From a virus (Duplodnaviria > Caudoviricetes): a stretch of DNA of 54,321 nucleotides. The position numbers and the translations under genes were made by a program. The stretch spans positions 1 to 54,321 of the IMG/VR virus record IMGVR_UViG_3300036985_004801. One strand, 5' to 3'. The notes under the pieces are model-generated. The model had not been told where the DNA came from. It made no database searches and saw only the letters and a program-made list of their open reading frames with translations. Numbering within the stretch: the stretch's first letter is position 1; each line of letters starts with the position of its first letter. This document shows positions 9,859-44,152 of the stretch, piece by piece.

Positions 9859-10386
9859 ATGAAAACAATAATAAGTAAATTAGTAATGTCAGCTGGATAT
9901 AAAAGCACTGATCATTTTTTAAACAGTTCTTTCCATCCAAACTTACTTGGATTTGGTGCAACTCTTAGTACAATTCTTGCATCAATTGCTTATTATTTTA
10001 ATGCAGTGTTTGGAATAGAATTACCAGTAGGAATTGTTTTAGTGATATTATTTTCATTAGAAATGTTTACTGGTATCAAAGCTAGTAGAAAAGAAAATAA
10101 ATCTTTTGATTCAGAATTATTTGGTAAAGGTTGGTTAAAACTTCTAGTTTATATGATTATGATTGGGTGTTCAAACATTTTATCTATATATATTCCTGTT
10201 AAAAGTTTTTTTACATGGAATTTTAATATATATTCGTGGTTGCATTATGGGTTTTATAATTTCATAATTATTAATTTAATCTGGTCAAACTTAGAAAACT
10301 TTAAAAGATTAGGTTGGATGGAATATATTCCTATACTCAAACAGTTGTCAAAGTATATTAAAGATGAACCAACTATAAAAGAATAA
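9859..10386 (+). CDS. holin
   Basis: Several hydrophobic helices; EMFTGI...S and SNLENF patterns of the phage holin 4-1/toxin-secretion family; directly precedes lysozyme. Confidence 0.75.
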   Translation: MKTIISKLVMSAGYKSTDHFLNSSFHPNLLGFGATLSTILASIAYYFNAVFGIELPVGIVLVILFSLEMFTGIKASRKENKSFDSELFGKGWLKLLVYMIMIGCSNILSIYIPVKSFFTWNFNIYSWLHYGFYNFIIINLIWSNLENFKRLGWMEYIPILKQLSKYIKDEPTIKE

Positions 10387-12016: not shown

Positions 12017-12048
12017 GCTTAAACAATAAATAGTTAAACATTTATTAT

Positions 12049-12056
12049 TATATTTG
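12049..12056 (+). promoter_or_regulatory. Bacteroidota-type -7 box (TATATTTG)
   Basis: After terminator, 20 nt upstream of ATG 12077. Confidence 0.65.
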
Positions 12057-12076: not shown

Positions 12077-12358
12077 ATGTCAGAAAATACCAACCAAGAA
12101 AAACGCGATTACACTGAAGCAGAGATACTTGAGATTCGCAAGAAAACTATTGCTCATTATGAAGAGCAAGAGAGTGTACTACGCATTCAATGCTTAGTAG
12201 AAAAACTAAAAGCAGGAATTAAGAAAGCTCAATTTGAAGCACTAGAGTATAGCATCAAATTTATGCAACTAAGTTTTGCTATGCAAGAAGCTGATAAGGA
12301 AGCTGAGGCTGAAGAAAAAGATAAGGGTGCTGATTTAGATATTGATAAAAAAGAATAG
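12077..12358 (+). CDS. hypothetical coiled-coil protein
   Basis: 93 aa, helical, acidic tail; first gene of the packaging operon. Confidence 0.7.
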   Translation: MSENTNQEKRDYTEAEILEIRKKTIAHYEEQESVLRIQCLVEKLKAGIKKAQFEALEYSIKFMQLSFAMQEADKEAEAEEKDKGADLDIDKKE

Positions 12359-20140: not shown

Positions 20141-20223
20141 ATAATTTATACATTATAACTATAGTATAACAAAAAGTTTTTTTTAATCTAAAATAGTTAA
20201 ACAAATATTGTTTAGAATTGGAT

Positions 20224-20243
20224 AAATTTGCTTATATTAAATA
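20224..20243 (+). promoter_or_regulatory. phage-type TATATTA motif variant (AAATTTGCTTATATTAAATA)
   Basis: Same core as motifs at 2646, 26631, 30612, 37100, 44181. Confidence 0.45.
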
Positions 20244-20267
20244 CAGTCAGTACTAAAACCAATAATA

Positions 20268-21533
20268 ATGACAGAAGAAGAAAAAGCAGTTAATACTGCA
20301 AACAGTCCTACTACAGCGGTAGAGGAGATTGATTTTGATAATTTAGATGATCTATTAGGTATTCCTTCAGCAAGTTCTATTATAGTTGCTACAGAATCTA
20401 AGCCATCTGTTTTAAAGTCAAACAAGGTTGACATATCGTTTCTAGATGACATTGATGATAATGACACAGTAGCAGCACAAGACCCTGAAGTTGCTAAAGC
20501 AATGGTTGCCTCTATAGTAGATGCACCAGCAGACAACTTTGAGGAGGAGGAAGATCAAGTTAATAAAGGAGGAAGACCTAGATTAACTAAAGATGCTATG
20601 GTTGAAGCAACTACTAGACTAATTGAGAAAGGAGTTTTGCAACCATTTAATGATGGCAAAGCTTTAGCAGATTATACAGTAGATGATTTTGAAGAGTTGA
20701 TTCAATTAAATATTGATTCTCAAAATCAAGAAGTTGCTCAAAATGCACCAGTTGAGTTGTTTAAACAACTACCACAAGATGTGCAAGCAGTTGTTCATTA
20801 TGCTTTAAATAATGGACAAGACATGAAATCTCTTTTCTCTCAACTTGCTAAATCTCAAGAAACATTTGATTTAGATGTTTCTGTAGAAGCAGATCAAGAA
20901 AGTATTGCTAGACAATATTTAGATCTATCTGGGTTTGGAACAGTTGAAGAAATTGAGGATGAAGTAAATGTTCTTAAAGATCGTGGAGATCTAGCTAAAT
21001 ATGCTGAAAGGTATAAACCAAAGTTAGATGCAAGACAGGCTGATGTAATTGAAAAAAGATTGAAAGATCAACAAGCAGCTAAGAACAGAAAGATTGATAT
21101 GGAAAAGAAATATCATGATGTTGTATATAATACTTTAAATTCAAGTAGTTTAAATGGGATTCCATTAAATAACAAAATTCAAACAATGTTATATTATGGT
21201 TTAACTGATTCTACTAAATATCAAGATTCAAAAGGTAATGCTACTAATGCATTAGGATTTCTATTAGAACAACACCAATTTGGTGAAAATGCTAATCCTT
21301 CTTTAGTAGCTGAAGCTTTATGGTTGCTAGCTGATCCTGTTAATTACAGAAGTTCAGTAAAACAATTAGGTGCAAATGTTGCAAATTCTAATACTGTAAG
21401 ACAACTTAGAACTGAAGAAGCTTCTAGGAATAGTTCATCAACAGGAATAGGTGACACAAGTACAAGTGCTGCGAGAGTAACGAATAAAAGAGAGCCATTA
21501 AGAAGGCCAGGAAAATCTTTATTCTCCAGATAA
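20268..21533 (+). CDS. putative capsid scaffolding protein
   Basis: Acidic helical protein between portal and MCP, basic C-terminal tail. Confidence 0.65.
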   Translation: MTEEEKAVNTANSPTTAVEEIDFDNLDDLLGIPSASSIIVATESKPSVLKSNKVDISFLDDIDDNDTVAAQDPEVAKAMVASIVDAPADNFEEEEDQVNKGGRPRLTKDAMVEATTRLIEKGVLQPFNDGKALADYTVDDFEELIQLNIDSQNQEVAQNAPVELFKQLPQDVQAVVHYALNNGQDMKSLFSQLAKSQETFDLDVSVEADQESIARQYLDLSGFGTVEEIEDEVNVLKDRGDLAKYAERYKPKLDARQADVIEKRLKDQQAAKNRKIDMEKKYHDVVYNTLNSSSLNGIPLNNKIQTMLYYGLTDSTKYQDSKGNATNALGFLLEQHQFGENANPSLVAEALWLLADPVNYRSSVKQLGANVANSNTVRQLRTEEASRNSSSTGIGDTSTSAARVTNKREPLRRPGKSLFSR

Positions 21534-23535: not shown

Positions 23536-23543
23536 TATATTTG
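23536..23543 (+). promoter_or_regulatory. Bacteroidota-type -7 box (TATATTTG)
   Basis: Immediately after terminator, upstream of ATG 23573. Confidence 0.6.
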
Positions 23544-23572
23544 TCAGTCATTAAAATAAACCAACAATTAAA

Positions 23573-24565
23573 ATGAGTACAAAATTAGAAAACTTGGGGA
23601 AAGTAAGTATCAAAGCTTACACAGATCCAAATCAAGAGAACATGGGATTAGAAAAGTATAACTATGTTGTATTTCCAAATACCTTTCAAGTTGAAACACT
23701 TGCAGCCATAGAACAAAATGGTAAGACAAGATATTTAACTGGGTTAAATGAATATGCTCCAGAAGTTAAACAGATTAAAGATCCAGAGAAAAAGAGTGCG
23801 GTTATTAAAGATATCCGTGAAACAGTTGCTATGCTAGAAAGAGAAAGAGCATTCAATCAAATTGATCCTGAAGATAAAGAATTTTGGTCAAAAGTTGAAA
23901 TGTTTACACCAGATAACTCAGATGTTTGGGGTAAAGTTTTCTTAAAGTTAGGTAATGATGATCAAGTATTAGATCCTAAGGAAAATCTTGATCACATGAT
24001 TCTTATTAAAGCAATTGAAAATGGTGGTTTCTCATTAGTAGCTGCAAATTTTGAGGATGCTAAAAGAACTAAACAAAGATGGTATTTAGATAGACAGATT
24101 GAATCTATCTCTACCAAAACTAATGTTACAAAACTTAGAAATAAGGCTCTTACTATTCTTCAAACATTATCAGAAGAGGATCCTAGAAAATTATTTTATA
24201 TTGCAAAAAATATAGATGCTAATAGTTCTCAATATACTAACAAGACTTTACAAGATGTTATCTATGACAACATGGATAAATATATTAATGGTCTTGGATA
24301 TGATACTGATAAAAAGAGATGTGCTACTGCATTTATTGATTATACAGGAATGTCAAATGAAGATTTAAAAATTAAGTCTATTATTAAAGATGCTAGTTTT
24401 TATAAATATATTATTGTTAAACCAGATGGTATGTTACATGAATCCTCTCAAAATGTTATGTTAGGAAGAAATGTATCTGATATTTTAGAGTATCTTAAAA
24501 ATCCATCTAATGATGATATGCTAGATCTATTAATGGCTAAAGTTGAAGATCTGTGGAGTAAGTAA
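23573..24565 (+). CDS. conserved crAss-like protein downstream of MCP
   Basis: 330 aa; size and position match the conserved post-MCP gene of the crAss capsid block. Confidence 0.6.
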   Translation: MSTKLENLGKVSIKAYTDPNQENMGLEKYNYVVFPNTFQVETLAAIEQNGKTRYLTGLNEYAPEVKQIKDPEKKSAVIKDIRETVAMLERERAFNQIDPEDKEFWSKVEMFTPDNSDVWGKVFLKLGNDDQVLDPKENLDHMILIKAIENGGFSLVAANFEDAKRTKQRWYLDRQIESISTKTNVTKLRNKALTILQTLSEEDPRKLFYIAKNIDANSSQYTNKTLQDVIYDNMDKYINGLGYDTDKKRCATAFIDYTGMSNEDLKIKSIIKDASFYKYIIVKPDGMLHESSQNVMLGRNVSDILEYLKNPSNDDMLDLLMAKVEDLWSK

Positions 24566-24581
24566 TTTAAAATCAGATATA

Positions 24582-24704
24582 ATGGCAACAATGAAAAAAG
24601 CATTACCAAAAGCTAAATGTGGAGGTGGTGCACCAAAGAAAGCAATGGGTGGTAAAGTTATCGCTAAAAAAGCTATGGGTGGTAAAATGAAAAAAGGTTG
24701 TTAA
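24582..24704 (+). CDS. 40-aa basic peptide built of KAxGG repeats
   Basis: Not in track; MATMKKALPKAKCGGGAPKKAMGGKVIAKKAMGGKMKKGC. Confidence 0.7.
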   Translation: MATMKKALPKAKCGGGAPKKAMGGKVIAKKAMGGKMKKGC

Positions 24705-24705
24705 A

Positions 24706-24993
24706 ATGGCTACCCCAGCTTGGACAAGAAAAGAAGGAAAAAATCCTAATGGTGGATTAAATGCTAAAGGTAGAGCATCTGCAAATGCGCAGGGCTCTAA
24801 CCTTAAAGCACCTGTTAAGTCTGGAACTAATCCAAGAAGGGTTAGTTTTGCTGCAAGATTTGGGGGTATGTCTGGTCCTGAAAAGAAACCAAATGGTGAA
24901 CCTACTAGACTAAAACTTGCTTTAAAAGCATGGGGGTTTGGTAGTAAAGAAGCAGCAAGAAATTTTGCTAATACACATAAAAAGAAAAAATAA
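24706..24993 (+). CDS. small basic phage protein (DUF6321-like)
   Basis: AWTRKEGKNPNGGLNAKGRAS...RRVSFAARF...LALKAW signature. Confidence 0.7.
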   Translation: MATPAWTRKEGKNPNGGLNAKGRASANAQGSNLKAPVKSGTNPRRVSFAARFGGMSGPEKKPNGEPTRLKLALKAWGFGSKEAARNFANTHKKKK

Positions 24994-25121
24994 TGGCAAA
25001 GACAACATCTACCACAAGTTCAAAGAAGTCAGAGTGTGCACTAAAAGTTAAAAAATCTTTTCAAGCAGGTATGATGATTGGGCGCAACATGAAAAAAACT
25101 GTTTCTAAAAAGAAAAAGTAA
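24993..25121 (+). CDS. 42-aa basic peptide
   Basis: Not in track; MAKTTSTTSSKKSECALKVKKSFQAGMMIGRNMKKTVSKKKK; TAATG overlaps on both sides. Confidence 0.7.
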   Translation: MAKTTSTTSSKKSECALKVKKSFQAGMMIGRNMKKTVSKKKK

Positions 25122-25288
25122 TGGCAATTAAAAAAGGTATGGGTTTCAAAGCAGCTCAAAAAGGGATTGCTAAAAAGCAAGGTGTTTCTATGGAAAGTGC
25201 TGGAGCTATATTAGCTTCTGCTGCAAGAAAAGCATCACCTGCTGCTAAGCGCAAGAATCCTAATCTTAAAAAAGTTAAAGGGAAATGA
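25121..25288 (+). CDS. 55-aa basic peptide
   Basis: Not in track; MAIKKGMGFKAAQKGIAKKQGVSMESAGAILASAARKASPAAKRKNPNLKKVKGK; ATGA overlap with next gene. Confidence 0.75.
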   Translation: MAIKKGMGFKAAQKGIAKKQGVSMESAGAILASAARKASPAAKRKNPNLKKVKGK

Positions 25289-26461: not shown

Positions 26462-26466
26462 TAACT

Positions 26467-26601
26467 ATGGCAACTGCAAAAAAGAAAGCTGCGCCTGCAA
26501 AAGGTAAATGGGTTCCACCATGGATCAAAGCGGCAGTAGAGAAAAAAGCTGCTGGAAAAACTCCAGCTAAAACTGCTTCTAAAGCAAAGAGTAAAAAATA
26601 A
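26467..26601 (+). CDS. 44-aa histone H1-like K/A/P-rich peptide
   Basis: Not in track; MATAKKKAAPAKGKWVPPWIKAAVEKKAAGKTPAKTASKAKSKK. Confidence 0.7.
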   Translation: MATAKKKAAPAKGKWVPPWIKAAVEKKAAGKTPAKTASKAKSKK

Positions 26602-26630
26602 ATAATATTTATATTGCATATATGAATTTT

Positions 26631-26646
26631 ATTTACTATATTATTA
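26631..26646 (+). promoter_or_regulatory. phage-type TATATTA motif
   Basis: ATTTACTATATTATTA in intergenic gap upstream of ATG 26676. Confidence 0.45.
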
Positions 26647-26675
26647 TATTGTTTATAAATTAAAAAAATAAAAAA

Positions 26676-28345: not shown

Positions 28346-28387
28346 GAAATGGAGAATGGAGGTTTTCTCTGTTCTCCATTTCTTTTT
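28346..28387 (+). terminator. intrinsic terminator
   Basis: GAAATGGAGAATGGAG-GTTTT-CTCTGTTCTCCATTTC plus T-run. Confidence 0.8.
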
Positions 28388-35959: not shown

Positions 35960-37003
35960 ATGTGTGAATGTAAAGATAAAAGTTGCTGCAAACATGCAGA
36001 AATAAAATTAAAAGGACCAAGAGGATATACAGGACCAATAGGACCACAAGGAACTGTTGGACCACAAGGTGTTCAGGGTCTACAAGGATTGAATGGCCCA
36101 ACTGGACCAACAGGTATGACAGGTCCGTCTGGCTCAGCAGGTGCGGCAGGTGCTCCGGGTGCAACAGGTGCTCAAGGTGTAGCAGGTATTCCAACTACAA
36201 TACAAGACACAACTACAATTGATCTTGATTATACAGGTGGAATATTAACAGCTGTAGTTCAAGATACTGGATGGGTAGATCTTTTAGGTTTTACTTATTA
36301 TGGAGCTCAAACTGTTAAACCACAATGTAGAAGAATTGGAAATCAAATACATTTTAGAGGTTCTGCTGTTGTTCCATTAGCAAATCCAGCTACACCTACG
36401 GTAGTTGTACCGTTTACATCAACAAGTGCGTATAATGGTATTTCTGGTTGTAAAACTTTTAGTGGAACAGGTGGATGCCTCATTAATTCTAATGGTTCAA
36501 TTGTATTTAATAATGATACTTCGGTTATACCTTTAAGTGTATTAAATGCTCCTACTCTACTTGATGGAAGTTATACTAAGACTAATCATATAGGAACAAG
36601 ACCAATTGATATTGATGCCACTGATGGTACTTCATTATCTGCTAATTTTACTGTAGTTATAACATCAGCTAAAAAATTAGTAATTGGCACTCTAAAAGAT
36701 CAAGAACTTACAGCTAGTAGTGCTTCTACAAATAATATAGGTACTTCTTCTTTACGTTTTATTACAAGTACAATAGTAGCAGGAGATAATGTTCCTAATT
36801 ATATAAACACAAGTACTATTCATAATGCACCAAGTGGAGCAGTATATAATCTTAGTACTGATGGTAATACTGGTGTATGGCCTTTTAGTTGTGATGCAGG
36901 AAAAGAAACAGATATAGGAGGTTTTTTTATAAGTTTAGATGGGTTAACTGCATTTATTAGTCCATGTGCTACAACAATACCAACTCCAACTCCAGTTTGT
37001 TAA
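35960..37003 (+). CDS. collagen-like tail fibre protein
   Basis: Cys cap, Gly-X-Y run, DTGWVDL...CRRIGNQIHFRG fibre C-terminal domain motif. Confidence 0.8.
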   Translation: MCECKDKSCCKHAEIKLKGPRGYTGPIGPQGTVGPQGVQGLQGLNGPTGPTGMTGPSGSAGAAGAPGATGAQGVAGIPTTIQDTTTIDLDYTGGILTAVVQDTGWVDLLGFTYYGAQTVKPQCRRIGNQIHFRGSAVVPLANPATPTVVVPFTSTSAYNGISGCKTFSGTGGCLINSNGSIVFNNDTSVIPLSVLNAPTLLDGSYTKTNHIGTRPIDIDATDGTSLSANFTVVITSAKKLVIGTLKDQELTASSASTNNIGTSSLRFITSTIVAGDNVPNYINTSTIHNAPSGAVYNLSTDGNTGVWPFSCDAGKETDIGGFFISLDGLTAFISPCATTIPTPTPVC

Positions 37004-37008
37004 AAATA

Positions 37009-37070
37009 TGTCACAGAAGGTTGGTTTATGTGACTGACTAGGATAAACCCCGAAGAGATTCGGGGTTTGT
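37009..37070 (+). ncRNA. candidate 3'UTR-derived antisense small RNA (seed hairpin plus terminator)
   Basis: GTCACA/TGTGAC stem displaying GGTTGGTTT; complementary to initiation regions at 12079-12095, 20245-20263 and 23543-23565. Confidence 0.45.
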
Positions 37071-37073
37071 TTT
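37045..37073 (+). terminator. intrinsic terminator
   Basis: AAACCCCGAA-GAGA-TTCGGGGTTT followed by GTTTT. Confidence 0.85.
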
Positions 37074-37099
37074 ATTATTTAATTTGTATTTTTGATGAT

Positions 37100-37115
37100 A
37101 AATTAGTATATTATA
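37100..37115 (+). promoter_or_regulatory. phage-type motif AAATTAGTATATTATA
   Basis: Abuts ATG 37115. Confidence 0.5.
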
Positions 37116-39238: not shown

Positions 39239-42200
39239 ATGGCAAAGCAAAGAAGAGGAGCAGGCAATCAAGATGTTAAAACAACAGGTACTTTTGATAA
39301 AAGTCTTGTTACAGATACTAGTGATTTTCATTTACCAGAAAATTCATGGACCTATGCTAGGAATGCTATTAATAACACACGTAAGGGAGATATTGGTAAG
39401 TTAAGTACTGAACCTGCAAATGACTTTTGTACTTATGCACCGTATACAATTATTGGTGCTATACATATAGAAGAAGACAGATGGTTGATGTTCTCAACAA
39501 ACAATACTGATTCAGAAATTGGTATCTTTAAAGAAGGTACTTGTAATTATACTACATTAGTCAATGATAAATGTTTAAAGTTTAGTACTGATTTTTTAAT
39601 TAAAGGAATTATAAGACCAACTTATAATTGTTCTTTTAATGCTTATTGGGATGATGGAAAAAATGTATCAAGAGTATTAGATATTTCTGATGTACCATGG
39701 AAACAAATTTGTGTAACAACTGATGGATGTACTGTATGTACTGATACAACAGATCTTGATTGTGATAAACTTAGATTAGAATCTTTTATACAGACACCTT
39801 GTATTAAAATTGTTAAAGGTAAAGGAGTTGCAAGTATAGCAAATGGTACATACCAAGTACAAATAGCATATCTTGATAATCAACAAAGAGTTACAGATTA
39901 TTTTATTCCATCTAATCCTTTGTCTTTATTTGATCATACAAATATTAATAGTTCAATTGATATTTATATTTCTAATTTAGATACTAATTTTACTGATTAT
40001 AGTTTAGTTTTAATATATGTTGTAAATGAAAATACTGTTGCTAGACAAATGGGAATCTATAGTACTAGACAAAATGTTGTTACAATAGATTATATTGATC
40101 TTACTCTTCCTGTTGTTCCTTTATCCTTAATGCCGATAATAACACCAGTTCCAGATAAATCTGAAGCTATATATAATGTTGGTAGTTATGCTCTAAGAGT
40201 TGGACCAACAACAAAATTTGATTTTAATTATCAACCCTTGGCTAATCAAATAGAAACTTTTTGGCAATGTGTTGAATATAAAAATGAGTACTATAAAAAT
40301 GGTGGTACTAATATAGGATACATGCGTGATGAAGTATATCCTTTCTTTATAAGATGGGTATATAATACAGGTGATAAATCAAGTAGTTATCATATTCCAG
40401 GTAAAGCTGCAACTGACTTTTATCTTACAGATGATACTGGAGCAAATGCTGGTCTAATTGCTGAAGATGCAATATGTCCTGCTACAATAAATGATATTGA
40501 AAGTCCTGATTATATACCAAAAGTTTTTGAAGTATATAATACAGCTACATTAACTACTACTCCTAATACAATATTGCCAGATGGAGGATTATTAGTAGCA
40601 GAAGGTAAAATGGGATACTGGGAATCAGTTGAACTATATGATGATAACAATCCAATTGTTTGGAATTCAAATATAGCTGGACATCCTGAATGGAATCTGT
40701 GTGGTAAACCTATTAGACATCATAAATTTCCTGAAAATGTAATTATTTCAGGTGGATCTTCAAATACTATTACTAATCATTATAAAGATGGTGGTGATAA
40801 AATTAGAATCATGGCAGTACGTTTTGATAATGTACAACCACCAGTTGACAACAGTGGTGCTTTAATCTCTAACATTGTTGGTTATGAAATTCTAAGAGGT
40901 AACAGGACTGGAGCAAAAACTGTTTTATATAAAGGAATAATAAATAATATGTTTTCATATACAGCACCTGCTATTATAACTAATAGAACTGCATTGTATG
41001 CTAACTATCCTTTTAATGATCTAAGGCCTGATCCTTTTATTTCATCAAATCCTACACCAACTAGTTTTGAACCAGGTTCAGGAGGTTTAATTAACTATAC
41101 TCCAAATGCTGCTTATAGTAGAAAACATTTTACTTTTCATTCTCCTGATACAATGTTTGCTACACCATTTTTAGTAGATGATGAAGTAAAAATTTATGGT
41201 GCAGCATGGGGAGATAGTCAAGGTAATTATTTAGAACCTGATCATCATCCAAGACATAAGTTTATAACAGATTTATCATTTTTAGCAGGAATTATTGCAG
41301 GTATTGGTTATGCTATTTCTCAACAGTTAGGTACAAGAGATATTAAATATTCGGGGTATCAAATTGATAGTGATCCAATATTTGCAGGAGCTTCTAATTC
41401 TGCAGGAAATGTGATTCCAGCAACAACTGTATTAACTGCTGCACAAGCAGCTGCAATTAATACAGTTGGTTTACAAGGATTTGTTGATGGTTTTTCTGGA
41501 CAAAATGTAGGGGTTGCTTCAACAACTTCTGTAACACAATTGGCTCTTAGAACTGCAAGTCAAGTAGCTGCTAGTGTTCCTTCATCAGGAATAACTTCAG
41601 GTACTGTTGAAATTACTTATAAAGATCAAGATTCTAATCCTGGACCGATTAAAGTAATAATGCTTGCTTTAGGTAATCCTATATTTGTAAGTCAAATGTC
41701 TGAAGGAGCTGCTACTACAATGAAATTAATTTTATCATTGGGATCATGGCAACAATTTGCTGTACAATATCAAGCATTATGTAAATATGAAAACTTTGCT
41801 GCACCTTATGCTCATAATAGAAGAAGACGAGTTAATGATGCTAGATATTTAAAACAAGGTATTCAAGATTATCAATCTAATTATGTTATTAATCATAAGC
41901 TTAGAAATGATACAGCAATGTTTGATACTACAGTAGATATAGATGATATTACAGGAACAATTGCTGATGTATCAAGGCCGCAATTAATATCAACTCTTTC
42001 AGAAGATAATAAGTTTAATACATATTCAAGAAGAGCATCTTCTCATTATGTAGCTTTAAAAACTAGATTAAGAAATCAATATGGACAGTTGCAATCTGTA
42101 AGACAATTATTAGCATCTTCTTGTATAACTCCTATAGCATTAACTAATTCAGGTGTAATATTTGGAGGAGATATTTATATTGGTAAATATTCAGAAAAAA

Positions 42201-44152
42201 ATACATTATATTATTTTCAACAATGGTTAGATGGTGAACTTGATGGAGCTATATTTAATTACAACAAGTATAAGATGTTTGAAAATACTGCTTTTTGGAT
42301 GGACACTGATCCATTTGATTTAATGGAGTTTGTAAATAGTTTTCCAAGTGCAATTAGTAGTGCTCTTACAGGAGGTTCATTATCTTCGGTTATGGCATCA
42401 TTTGTTACTCCTTCTGATAAACATTGTTTTGATAGATTAGGTATTGCATCTAATGGAATATTCTTGTTAAAGAAAGCATACATGTATTTATTTAATTCTG
42501 GTGTTAGAGATTTCTTTGTAGAGTCAGAATTTAATGTAGATATGAGAGATTGGCAAGATATTGAATCTCAAAAACATTATCCAGTTCTTTCTAATTTAAG
42601 AACAATGTTTGGAATGAAATTGATAAGAGCTGATAACTATTATAAAATAGATAGAAGTTTATCTTGGTCATTCATGGCAAGTCAAAAAATACCTTGGGGT
42701 ATTATGCAAGATAGAGATTATAACCCTTTATTGTCTGAAAGTTGTTATACTAAATTTCCAAGAAGGTTACTTTATTCATTACCACAAAATGCAGCACAAC
42801 AAGATGTATCTTTATTAAAACAAGATAACTGGAGAATATTTTTACCAAATAATTATGCTGATTATGAAAGTAATGTAACAGCAATTAAGTCTATTGATAG
42901 AACTGCAGCATTGATTCTTTTTGAAAATCAAGCTCCTGGATTATTACCTGGGGTTGATGAATTAAAAACACAATCTGGTACAGCAGTAACAATTGGAGAT
43001 GGTAATTTGTTTGCAAGAAAATTACAACAACTTTCAAACTCAGAAACTTCTTATGAATTTGCATCTTGTCAAAGTAGATTGTCTGTATTAAATACTCCGG
43101 CTGGTGTATTCTGGATGAACTTAAATCAAGGTAAAATATTTAGTTATTCTGGTGGATTAAAAGAGATATCTTTAAAAGGAAATAAGTTTTGGTTAAATAC
43201 ATATTTACCATATAAATTACTTGAGGACTTTCCTACATTCTCTGTTACAGATAATCCTGTATCTGGAATAGGATGTCAAACAATTTATGATAATGAATAT
43301 AGTTTAATCTATTTCTGTAAGAAAGATTACAAATTAAAGAAAGACCTACCAGTTACTGTTGAGTATGTGGGTGGTTCTAAGTTTTTAATTAATGATGTTT
43401 TTATAGCAAATGCAGGAGATCCTTTATACTTTGATGATTGTTCATGGACATTAAGCTATGATCCTAAAATTCAAGAATTTGTATCATTTCATGATTGGCA
43501 TCCAGATTTATCTTTAGGTGCTAAGAATACCTTTTTAACAACTAAGGGTAATGGTATATGGAAACATAATAATATTTGTAGTTTATATTGTAACTACTAT
43601 GGTAAAGACTATCCATTTGAAGTAGAGTTTCAATTAGATAATAAGTTTGCTGTAGCTACAATGAGAAATGTAGAGTTCTATATTGAAAGTTATATATATG
43701 ATTCTAAAAATTGTTATGATAGATTTCATGTATTAGATCATGGATTTAATGAAGCTGTAGTACATAATTCAGAACAAGTATCTGGTTTGTTAAAGTTAGC
43801 AATTACTCCTAAGAATGATATACCATTACTATTAAGTTATCCTAAAGTTCAATTAGATCACATAGATATTATCTTCTCTAAAGAAGAACAACAATATAGA
43901 TTTAATCAATTCTGGGATATAACAAATGATAGAGGTGAATACAGTAATGCTGAAGAACTTATTTGGAATACAGAAGATAATGGTTATATTCGTAATCTGA
44001 ATCCAGTAAATTTAAACTATAACAAGCAAGAATTTCAAAGGAAAAAATTCAGACACTTTAATAATAGAGTAATTTTAAAAAGAACAGATAACAATAATGT
44101 TGAGATACTTGTAAGTTTAGCAGTAAGTAATCAACAATTATCTCACAGATAA
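39239..44152 (+). CDS. tail stabilisation (muzzle) protein
   Basis: 1637 aa; YARNA, GYMRDEVYPF, PIRHHKFP, FHSPD, FGGDIYI, WTLSYD..SFHDWHP motifs. Confidence 0.8.
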   Translation: MAKQRRGAGNQDVKTTGTFDKSLVTDTSDFHLPENSWTYARNAINNTRKGDIGKLSTEPANDFCTYAPYTIIGAIHIEEDRWLMFSTNNTDSEIGIFKEGTCNYTTLVNDKCLKFSTDFLIKGIIRPTYNCSFNAYWDDGKNVSRVLDISDVPWKQICVTTDGCTVCTDTTDLDCDKLRLESFIQTPCIKIVKGKGVASIANGTYQVQIAYLDNQQRVTDYFIPSNPLSLFDHTNINSSIDIYISNLDTNFTDYSLVLIYVVNENTVARQMGIYSTRQNVVTIDYIDLTLPVVPLSLMPIITPVPDKSEAIYNVGSYALRVGPTTKFDFNYQPLANQIETFWQCVEYKNEYYKNGGTNIGYMRDEVYPFFIRWVYNTGDKSSSYHIPGKAATDFYLTDDTGANAGLIAEDAICPATINDIESPDYIPKVFEVYNTATLTTTPNTILPDGGLLVAEGKMGYWESVELYDDNNPIVWNSNIAGHPEWNLCGKPIRHHKFPENVIISGGSSNTITNHYKDGGDKIRIMAVRFDNVQPPVDNSGALISNIVGYEILRGNRTGAKTVLYKGIINNMFSYTAPAIITNRTALYANYPFNDLRPDPFISSNPTPTSFEPGSGGLINYTPNAAYSRKHFTFHSPDTMFATPFLVDDEVKIYGAAWGDSQGNYLEPDHHPRHKFITDLSFLAGIIAGIGYAISQQLGTRDIKYSGYQIDSDPIFAGASNSAGNVIPATTVLTAAQAAAINTVGLQGFVDGFSGQNVGVASTTSVTQLALRTASQVAASVPSSGITSGTVEITYKDQDSNPGPIKVIMLALGNPIFVSQMSEGAATTMKLILSLGSWQQFAVQYQALCKYENFAAPYAHNRRRRVNDARYLKQGIQDYQSNYVINHKLRNDTAMFDTTVDIDDITGTIADVSRPQLISTLSEDNKFNTYSRRASSHYVALKTRLRNQYGQLQSVRQLLASSCITPIALTNSGVIFGGDIYIGKYSEKNTLYYFQQWLDGELDGAIFNYNKYKMFENTAFWMDTDPFDLMEFVNSFPSAISSALTGGSLSSVMASFVTPSDKHCFDRLGIASNGIFLLKKAYMYLFNSGVRDFFVESEFNVDMRDWQDIESQKHYPVLSNLRTMFGMKLIRADNYYKIDRSLSWSFMASQKIPWGIMQDRDYNPLLSESCYTKFPRRLLYSLPQNAAQQDVSLLKQDNWRIFLPNNYADYESNVTAIKSIDRTAALILFENQAPGLLPGVDELKTQSGTAVTIGDGNLFARKLQQLSNSETSYEFASCQSRLSVLNTPAGVFWMNLNQGKIFSYSGGLKEISLKGNKFWLNTYLPYKLLEDFPTFSVTDNPVSGIGCQTIYDNEYSLIYFCKKDYKLKKDLPVTVEYVGGSKFLINDVFIANAGDPLYFDDCSWTLSYDPKIQEFVSFHDWHPDLSLGAKNTFLTTKGNGIWKHNNICSLYCNYYGKDYPFEVEFQLDNKFAVATMRNVEFYIESYIYDSKNCYDRFHVLDHGFNEAVVHNSEQVSGLLKLAITPKNDIPLLLSYPKVQLDHIDIIFSKEEQQYRFNQFWDITNDRGEYSNAEELIWNTEDNGYIRNLNPVNLNYNKQEFQRKKFRHFNNRVILKRTDNNNVEILVSLAVSNQQLSHR

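Follow-up and report, generated by a model that had tools for sequence, protein, structure and literature searches.

Several classes of regulatory RNA provide a framework for the locus described here. In bacteria, some base-pairing small RNAs (sRNAs) originate in the 3' untranslated region (3'UTR) of messages, as exemplified by CpxQ, SroC and DapZ. In phages, the c4 antisense RNA of P1 and P7 and the CI RNA of satellite P4 use two exposed segments to pair with two boxes of a leader and mask its ribosome-loading site, with one RNA acting on several target sites; these RNAs are produced by processing of the 5' portion of the operon under their control and function in immunity. A related arrangement is found in icaR, where a segment of the 3'UTR pairs with the ribosome-loading site of the 5'UTR in one mRNA.

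The setting of interest here is that of the Bacteroidetes. As described in the available part of one article (PMC7366714), mRNAs of this phylum are without classical Shine-Dalgarno (SD) sequences, a promoter consensus of the TAnnTTTG type is used, Hfq is absent (the missing chaperone is discussed) and UTR-derived sRNA candidates exist in Bacteroides thetaiotaomicron. The same part of the article describes GibS, an sRNA of B. thetaiotaomicron that contacts the start-codon region of its target through two seed regions and represses it. Translation initiation without SD pairing in Bacteroidota-type hosts is still poorly understood, and post-transcriptional regulation of crAss-like phages is essentially unknown. 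No regulatory RNA was described for crAss-like phages in the literature searched (crAss-like, Crassvirales and general phage sRNA articles, without supplements). In the portion of the crAss001 paper that was accessible (PMC8375218), the term "non-coding" occurs only in the reference list, with regard to another phage, and "terminator" is absent.

We analyzed a stretch of DNA of 54,321 nucleotides (54 kb, the window) that is part of an uncultured crAss-like phage, with a completeness of 45% by CheckV and all called genes on the + strand. Matches to PHROGs were found for the large terminase (15010), the portal (17405), the major head protein (21565, the major capsid gene) and the last tail-fibre gene, which encodes 347 aa (35960-37003, + strand; phrog_5073 tail fiber protein, 3e-18). 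A protein of 1637 aa (39239-44152) matched the Crassvirus muzzle protein PF25731 (8e-22) and is followed by large ORFs of 1152, 1062 and 739 aa. By these crass-type virion genes (muzzle PF25731 and the terminase, portal and capsid PHROGs), the window is placed in the Crassvirales; no close cultured relative was found, the best match of the capsid protein being 27% identical. When words sampled from the region were searched in public sequencing runs, one lake-water RNA run gave 5% and six others next to none.

The element under study lies in the 3'UTR of the last tail-fibre gene. It consists of an RNA stem-loop (37010-37034, + strand) with a 6-bp stem (37010-37015/37029-37034) and a 13-nt loop (37016-37028) that includes the conserved core GTTGGT (37020-37025). 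Directly 3' of the stem is a single-stranded CTGAC tail (37034-37038, + strand), which forms the second half of the seed, and this is followed by an intrinsic terminator (37039-37078, + strand) composed of a long G+C-rich stem (37039-37074) and a T run, located after the stop codon of the fibre gene. Folded as RNA, positions 37004-37080 were found to form exactly these two hairpins at -28.8 kcal/mol (z = -5.1), with none of 200 shuffled sequences as good. The initial annotation had proposed that the RNA of this region acts as an antisense RNA on three translation-initiation regions; all coordinates that it gave were found to be correct. Rfam 15 provided no matching family for the element (best score 23.4 bits, with the gathering threshold at 90; E = 0.21).

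In its architecture, the element resembles the 3'UTR-derived sRNAs. It is positioned between the stop codon and an intrinsic terminator shared with the parent mRNA, has no visible promoter of its own, exposes a conserved and accessible seed and is complementary to the initiation regions of other mRNAs. Unlike the bacterial examples, it is encoded by a phage (of virulent type), is complementary to that phage's own head genes and displays its seed in a loop plus a short tail; a processed species is putative. Two other identities considered for the locus were set aside. A hairpin of the type associated with diversity-generating retroelements (DGR) was rejected, as self-BLAST of 36500-37110 against the window returned only chance matches of 19-24 nt and no template repeat. 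Tail-fibre inversion sites were dropped, given that the three leader copies are all in one orientation and no recombinase was seen. As a separate observation, the 5' flank of the terminator stem (37043-37049) is complementary to 7 nt of the loop (37023-37029) and resembles the leader box described below; this complementarity could form a pseudoknot or mask the loop, and it is kept with one wobble in relatives G001 and L023 and absent in L025.

Comparison to relatives was used to assess whether the hairpin is conserved. One relative (G001) was identified by searching for exact copies of 21 bases of the loop and tail, and its DNA is ~72-79% identical to the window in the regions compared. Its hairpin is identical although the flanking genes have diverged, and its terminator differs by compensating changes, as do the terminator stems of L023 and L025. 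Additional relatives were gathered around homologues of the downstream 223-aa virion protein (27 loci) and by a profile search, in which 341 relatives were detected and 80 kept, yielding 75 further loci. A hairpin with the loop core, accompanied by a terminator and located directly after the last gene of the fibre module, was present in 98 of the 102 related loci (25/27 of the first loci and 73/75 of the further loci, the latter comprising 52/75 by a strict filter and 21 of the other 23 by a relaxed filter); at these loci an accessible seed thus stands beside an intrinsic terminator as in 3'UTR-derived sRNAs. The four loci without a hairpin are all cut off upstream of that place. The gene before the hairpin is often unrelated and, in some lineages, an extra gene is inserted between the hairpin and the homologue of a 163-aa gene; therefore, the element travels with its position and not with any one gene.

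The loop core GTTGGT was found to hardly change among the relatives, and ~44 distinct hairpins were recovered (51 strings were listed, ~7 of which were wrong automatic picks; an improved picker was used for the counts of tail and GTCAG given below). Covariation was formally analyzed for 8 of the ~44, picked for equal loop length. In these gapless hairpins, 94.6% of the cells were paired and 6 of 7 pairs had changed on both sides, with 0/500 shuffles reaching any of the five measures used and slid-partner controls giving 35-71% pairing. Alignments of the hairpins by MAFFT were out of register because loop lengths differ, and the rest of the hairpins were assessed by our own scripts. When a single sub-group was used to build a covariance model, the model proved too narrow and missed the hairpin of the window itself. 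When 11 stems were read on both strands, 10 lost pairs on the - strand due to G-T pairs. Such pairs are valid on the + strand only, and thus the functional strand is the + strand, i.e., the RNA of the fibre message. Of 314 other TTGGTTT sites, taken from nine genomes, just 10.8% had a stem of at least 6 in this geometry. Taken together, these results support the conclusion that the hairpin is a conserved and co-varying structure of the + strand and so works as RNA. In a clade that is without the TGAC tail (L008, L011, L016-L018, L020 and L028), a conserved 9-nt stretch was observed in the spacer between hairpin and terminator (~1075-1090 in each of these loci); this stretch holds a second copy of the loop motif GTTGG.

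The three sites complementary to the loop and tail are all on the + strand and have two parts, a GTCAG box and an A/C-rich AACCAA-type box. Site a (23543-23565) combines GTCAGTCA (23543-23550) with ATAAACCAAC (23556-23565) in the leader of a gene for 330 aa and ends 7 nt before its ATG at 23573. Site b (20245-20262) is composed of AGTCAGT (20245-20251) and AAACCAA (20256-20262) and precedes the ATG at 20268 of a 421-aa gene that comes before the major capsid gene; the initial annotation had called this gene a scaffold, a name for which PHROGs and Pfam gave no support. Site c (12079-12095), with GTCAG (12079-12083) and ACCAACC (12089-12095), overlaps the start region (ATG 12077) and covers the start codon and first codons of a 93-aa gene, the first of the packaging module. 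Each site had also been placed downstream of a promoter motif, and a box of the TAnnTTTG type was indeed found before every one, at 23536-23543 for leader a, 20223-20230 for leader b and 12049-12056 for leader c (all + strand). In leader b, the promoter region (20223-20238) includes in addition a family-conserved TATATT (20233-20238), and GTCAG starts 7 nt after this box, about where the transcript start is expected. The promoter box and the GTCAG half-site of leader a share one base, the last of the former and the first of the latter, and for this reason the GTCAG of leader a may lie, wholly or in part, upstream of the transcript start.

Additional features were observed near these leaders. 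Throughout the family, leader b includes a TATATT(A) box and, 4-16 nt upstream of it, an AAGTTTA-like box; this pattern differs from the TAnnTTTG box and may represent a late-promoter type of the phage. Where the GTCAG box is present in leader b, it begins 2-7 nt after the TATAnT box. An element of 13 nt is common to 20183-20195 and 12029-12041, upstream of promoters b and c, and is kept in G001.

The strength of the complementarity was examined by calculating duplex energies between 37016-37041 and the region from -40 to +20 of gene starts. By this approach, sites a, b and c were ranked 1-3 of the 52 gene starts of the window, in agreement with the initial annotation, with energies of -25.7, -19.5 and -19.3, respectively, compared to a mean of -9.8 (sd 3.9) for all starts. 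None of 1000 shuffles of the seed reached the energy sum of these top three, a result again in favor of the annotated sites. When the cost of opening the hairpin was included by cofolding, sites b, a and c still occupied ranks 1-3 of 51. The loop contact of leaders a and b falls between -17 and -6 of the start codon, and the pairing at site c runs from the start codon to +19. Of 1397 natural 27-mers drawn at random from the window, 13 (~1%) reached the same energy sum; the best 8 of these are at or near gene starts, with at least one the antisense of a gene start. This share of natural 27-mers, and the flexible two-part match that had been allowed, speak for a resemblance due to chance and picked by eye. 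Complementarity in a single genome would not survive the look-elsewhere effect, and it is the relatives that decide. The result was replicated in relatives outside the original reading, and chance is strongly disfavored by these comparative data; we consider it a highly improbable explanation.

In each of the four related genomes G000-G003, leaders a, b and c were ranked 1-3 of 41-68 gene starts. By cofolding, the three leaders were the top three in G000 and G003, a and b were the top two in G001, and a and b were ranks 1-2 with c at rank 4 in G002. In the wider family, an AACCAA(C) box was present 4-15 nt before the ATG of genes a and b in every genome that could be examined. For gene b, 48 of 49 leaders had the AACCAA box and the single miss was explained by a mis-set start; among the loop-variant and leader loci, the start of gene b is mis-set in L155. 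In eight whole records, AACCAA was found within -30 to -1 of 2-7 genes per genome, compared to 0.6-1.4 expected, and genes a and b were always among these. When leader b was compared to the reverse complement of the loop in 45 distinct genomes, the longest exact match averaged 9.4 nt (range 7-12), and the complete 12-base loop was matched in 8 of them. The set of 45 leaves out G007 and G009, with loops that lack the 6-base core, and L161, with a locus near the contig end. Controls gave 6.4 for the wrong polarity, 4.4 for the reversed loop and 4.6 for the same-sense loop. The wrong-polarity value is elevated since AACCAA is its own mirror image; the ~3 nt by which the true complement exceeds it come from the flanks, and thus antiparallel pairing is indicated by the flanks and not by the core. 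Both cores are nearly invariant, so these matches represent few independent events. The 3' arm and tail were no more complementary to leader b family-wide than controls were (5.2 vs. 4.3-4.9). Within the window, the best loop-only duplex (-12.2) was formed with an AACCAAC in the 10360-10386 region, 16 nt before the ATG at 10386 and inside the end of the preceding gene.

These data bear on whether the hairpin and the boxes are related at all. The two could be independent elements, the hairpin serving through its loop as a protein site, a nuclease barrier or an aid to termination and the AACCAA boxes as A/C-rich enhancers that promote translation of strongly expressed late genes in a host without SD sequences; their complementarity would then have no function. 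In line with this possibility, the boxes of leader a often occur in two or three copies, boxes also precede other genes and were present in every genome examined, the cores are invariant, and cofolding did not place the leaders first in three distant genomes (G004, G007 and G008). As the cofolding program cannot model closed-loop contacts, this last result is weak evidence in either direction. Multi-copy boxes before many genes resemble a translation enhancer, a property that is compatible with a target role and does not require one. By contrast, it is very unlikely that two separately conserved motifs would match by chance as exact complements over 8-12 nt (9.4 vs. 4.4-6.4 in controls), and two further observations described below, joint gain and loss of a second half-site pair and positions that change in step, also argue against independence. 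On balance we regard independent elements as rather unlikely.

Changes in step were found at several levels. The loop base located three positions 5' of GG and the leader b base three positions 3' of CC are G/C in the majority of genomes, with G009 having T/A and G007 having A/T; this pair is a G-T wobble in the window and a mismatch in G004. The edges of the two helices differ among the window, G002 and G003 yet are complementary in each, such that every lineage extends the pairing in its own way. A TGAC directly after the stem was found in 15 of 47 distinct genomes, 12 of which carry GTCAG in leader b (at -22 to -35), compared to 0 of the 32 without the tail (Fisher p = 9e-9, kinship ignored). 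The 12 genomes with both halves have approximately six different types of stem, and thus the co-occurrence of GTCAG and CTGAC reflects more than one event and far fewer than twelve. In three of the 47 genomes the TGAC tail is present and leader b has no GTCAG; the same is true of L161, which was left out of this table because its leader locus begins close to the end of the contig. At four loci, a base substitution on the loop's 3' side was accompanied by no matching change in the boxes, a point that is consistent with independent elements; in these loci the match is shifted to the 5' side of the loop and comprises 8-9 nt. Compensatory changes, which the initial annotation had suggested looking for in relatives, were found for the stem, which co-varies, and for two loop-box positions, and were not found for the four loop variants or G004.

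The concerted changes and the reverse-complement relation would be equally expected of a double-stranded DNA site, and the initial annotation had named a protein-binding motif read in either orientation as its alternative. According to this explanation, a phage regulator would recognize an operator downstream of the head promoters and a copy of it at the end of the fibre module; the boxes do adjoin promoters, and the GTCAG half-site is at or near the likely transcript starts. Several properties of the motif fit this explanation less well. In 98 loci the motif is the loop of a co-varying, RNA-type stem with G-T pairs that are valid on the + strand only. The spacer between GTCAG and AACCAA varies from 0 to ~12 nt, the distance of GTCAG to the promoter box is 0, 7 or 13 nt, and site c is inside coding sequence. 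In cases of G for A in the 3' arm, T is retained in the leaders, which gives a wobble in RNA but a mismatch between DNA sites. The variable spacing of the half-sites fits RNA pairing with an internal loop better than it fits a promoter element or a rigid protein site. An orientation-independent DNA motif is thus viewed as improbable.

Based on these comparisons, a model is proposed in which the structured RNA of the 3'UTR (stem-loop, short single-stranded tail and intrinsic terminator) would be produced either with the late tail message, as its 3' end, or by cleavage of this message, as a fragment protected by the terminator. The loop, with its core GTTGGT/TTGGTTT, would pair with the AACCAA(C) box, rich in A and C, that precedes the start codons of head-module genes; in the clade of the window, the CTGAC tail would in addition pair with the GTCAG box located more 5' in these leaders. 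The two contacts would be inside or adjoining the ribosome landing zone, the region covered by the 30S subunit, and for this reason repression of initiation would be the most likely outcome; accumulation of tail transcripts would then lower translation initiation of the head-module genes. That the hairpin base-pairs with the initiation regions of head genes is a proposal to which we give slightly less than even weight, and the pairing itself is close to balanced between real and not. A repressive effect of the pairing on head genes is possible and more doubtful than the pairing, and pairing at the 5' end of message b may instead stabilize this message. The structure of the element, its strand, its conservation and the conserved complementarity are established by the comparisons above; that the RNAs meet, that the action is in trans and that its sign is negative we infer. 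Coordination of head and tail output by the hairpin, as suggested in the initial annotation, is speculation. The antisense reading from which that suggestion came is supported in part, by the conserved co-varying hairpin of the + strand, by loop and tail complementarity to the same leaders in four related genomes and by the match of loop and box in the wider family.

The pairing could also be real and take a different form, either within one molecule (3'UTR to 5'UTR of read-through transcripts) or in the reverse direction, with abundant head-gene leaders binding the nascent hairpin and altering termination and the read-through to virion genes located downstream. Such a scheme would be suited by the presence of all genes on one strand, by a tail half-site directly adjoining the terminator stem and by the complementarity of the 5' flank of this stem to part of the loop. 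The leaders are separated from the hairpin by 14-25 kb, terminator-like hairpins intervene (upstream of leader a and at 28346-28382) and the core of the terminator stem is outside the pairing, and we judge intramolecular or reverse pairing to have little probability.

Compared to described systems, the proposed trans-acting element shares with the c4 and CI RNAs two short exposed segments that match two boxes in phage leaders; unlike these RNAs, it is located at the 3' terminus of another, late operon, and the window has no sign of lysogeny. As in icaR, a segment of a 3'UTR is complementary to a ribosome-loading site, with the difference that the candidate targets are on other transcription units 14-25 kb upstream. 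The likeness to GibS, as far as the available part of the article describes that sRNA, includes the Bacteroidetes setting without SD sequences and two seed regions facing initiation regions (PMC7366714). Unlike the hairpin, GibS is there encoded by an intergenic gene that has a promoter of its own, and its 5' seed is unstructured; the two are not related in sequence or by Rfam.

If the pairing is real, it would constitute an RNA circuit internal to the phage that links the end of tail transcription to the translation of head genes, with conservation over ~45-100% protein identity of a neighboring virion protein, and it would point to a concrete leader signal for initiation in Bacteroidota-type hosts. 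We tentatively suggest, with somewhat less assurance than for the pairing, that this clade of uncultured aquatic crAss-like phages uses an anti-leader riboregulator, in which a hairpin made only at the end of the tail-fibre module masks, by its loop, an A/C-rich box that substitutes for the SD sequence in head and packaging messages, such that the timing or balance of head and tail production would be set by RNA-RNA pairing alone, without a known chaperone. By this proposal, the AACCAA box would represent a defined signal for ribosome loading in a host phylum without SD sequences. Should the pairing prove not to be real, a new and strongly co-varying phage RNA motif with an invariant loop remains.

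Two further regions of the window were of interest. The stretches 24566-25284 and 26462-26675, called intergenic, can be read as ORFs of <60 aa rich in Lys, Ala and Gly, which may be small basic virion or internal proteins below the 60-aa cut-off. At 600-760, upstream of the first promoter box and the ATG at 772, three tandem copies of an 18-nt perfect hairpin (6-bp stem, A-rich 6-nt loop) were observed that could be operators, early-promoter elements or terminators.
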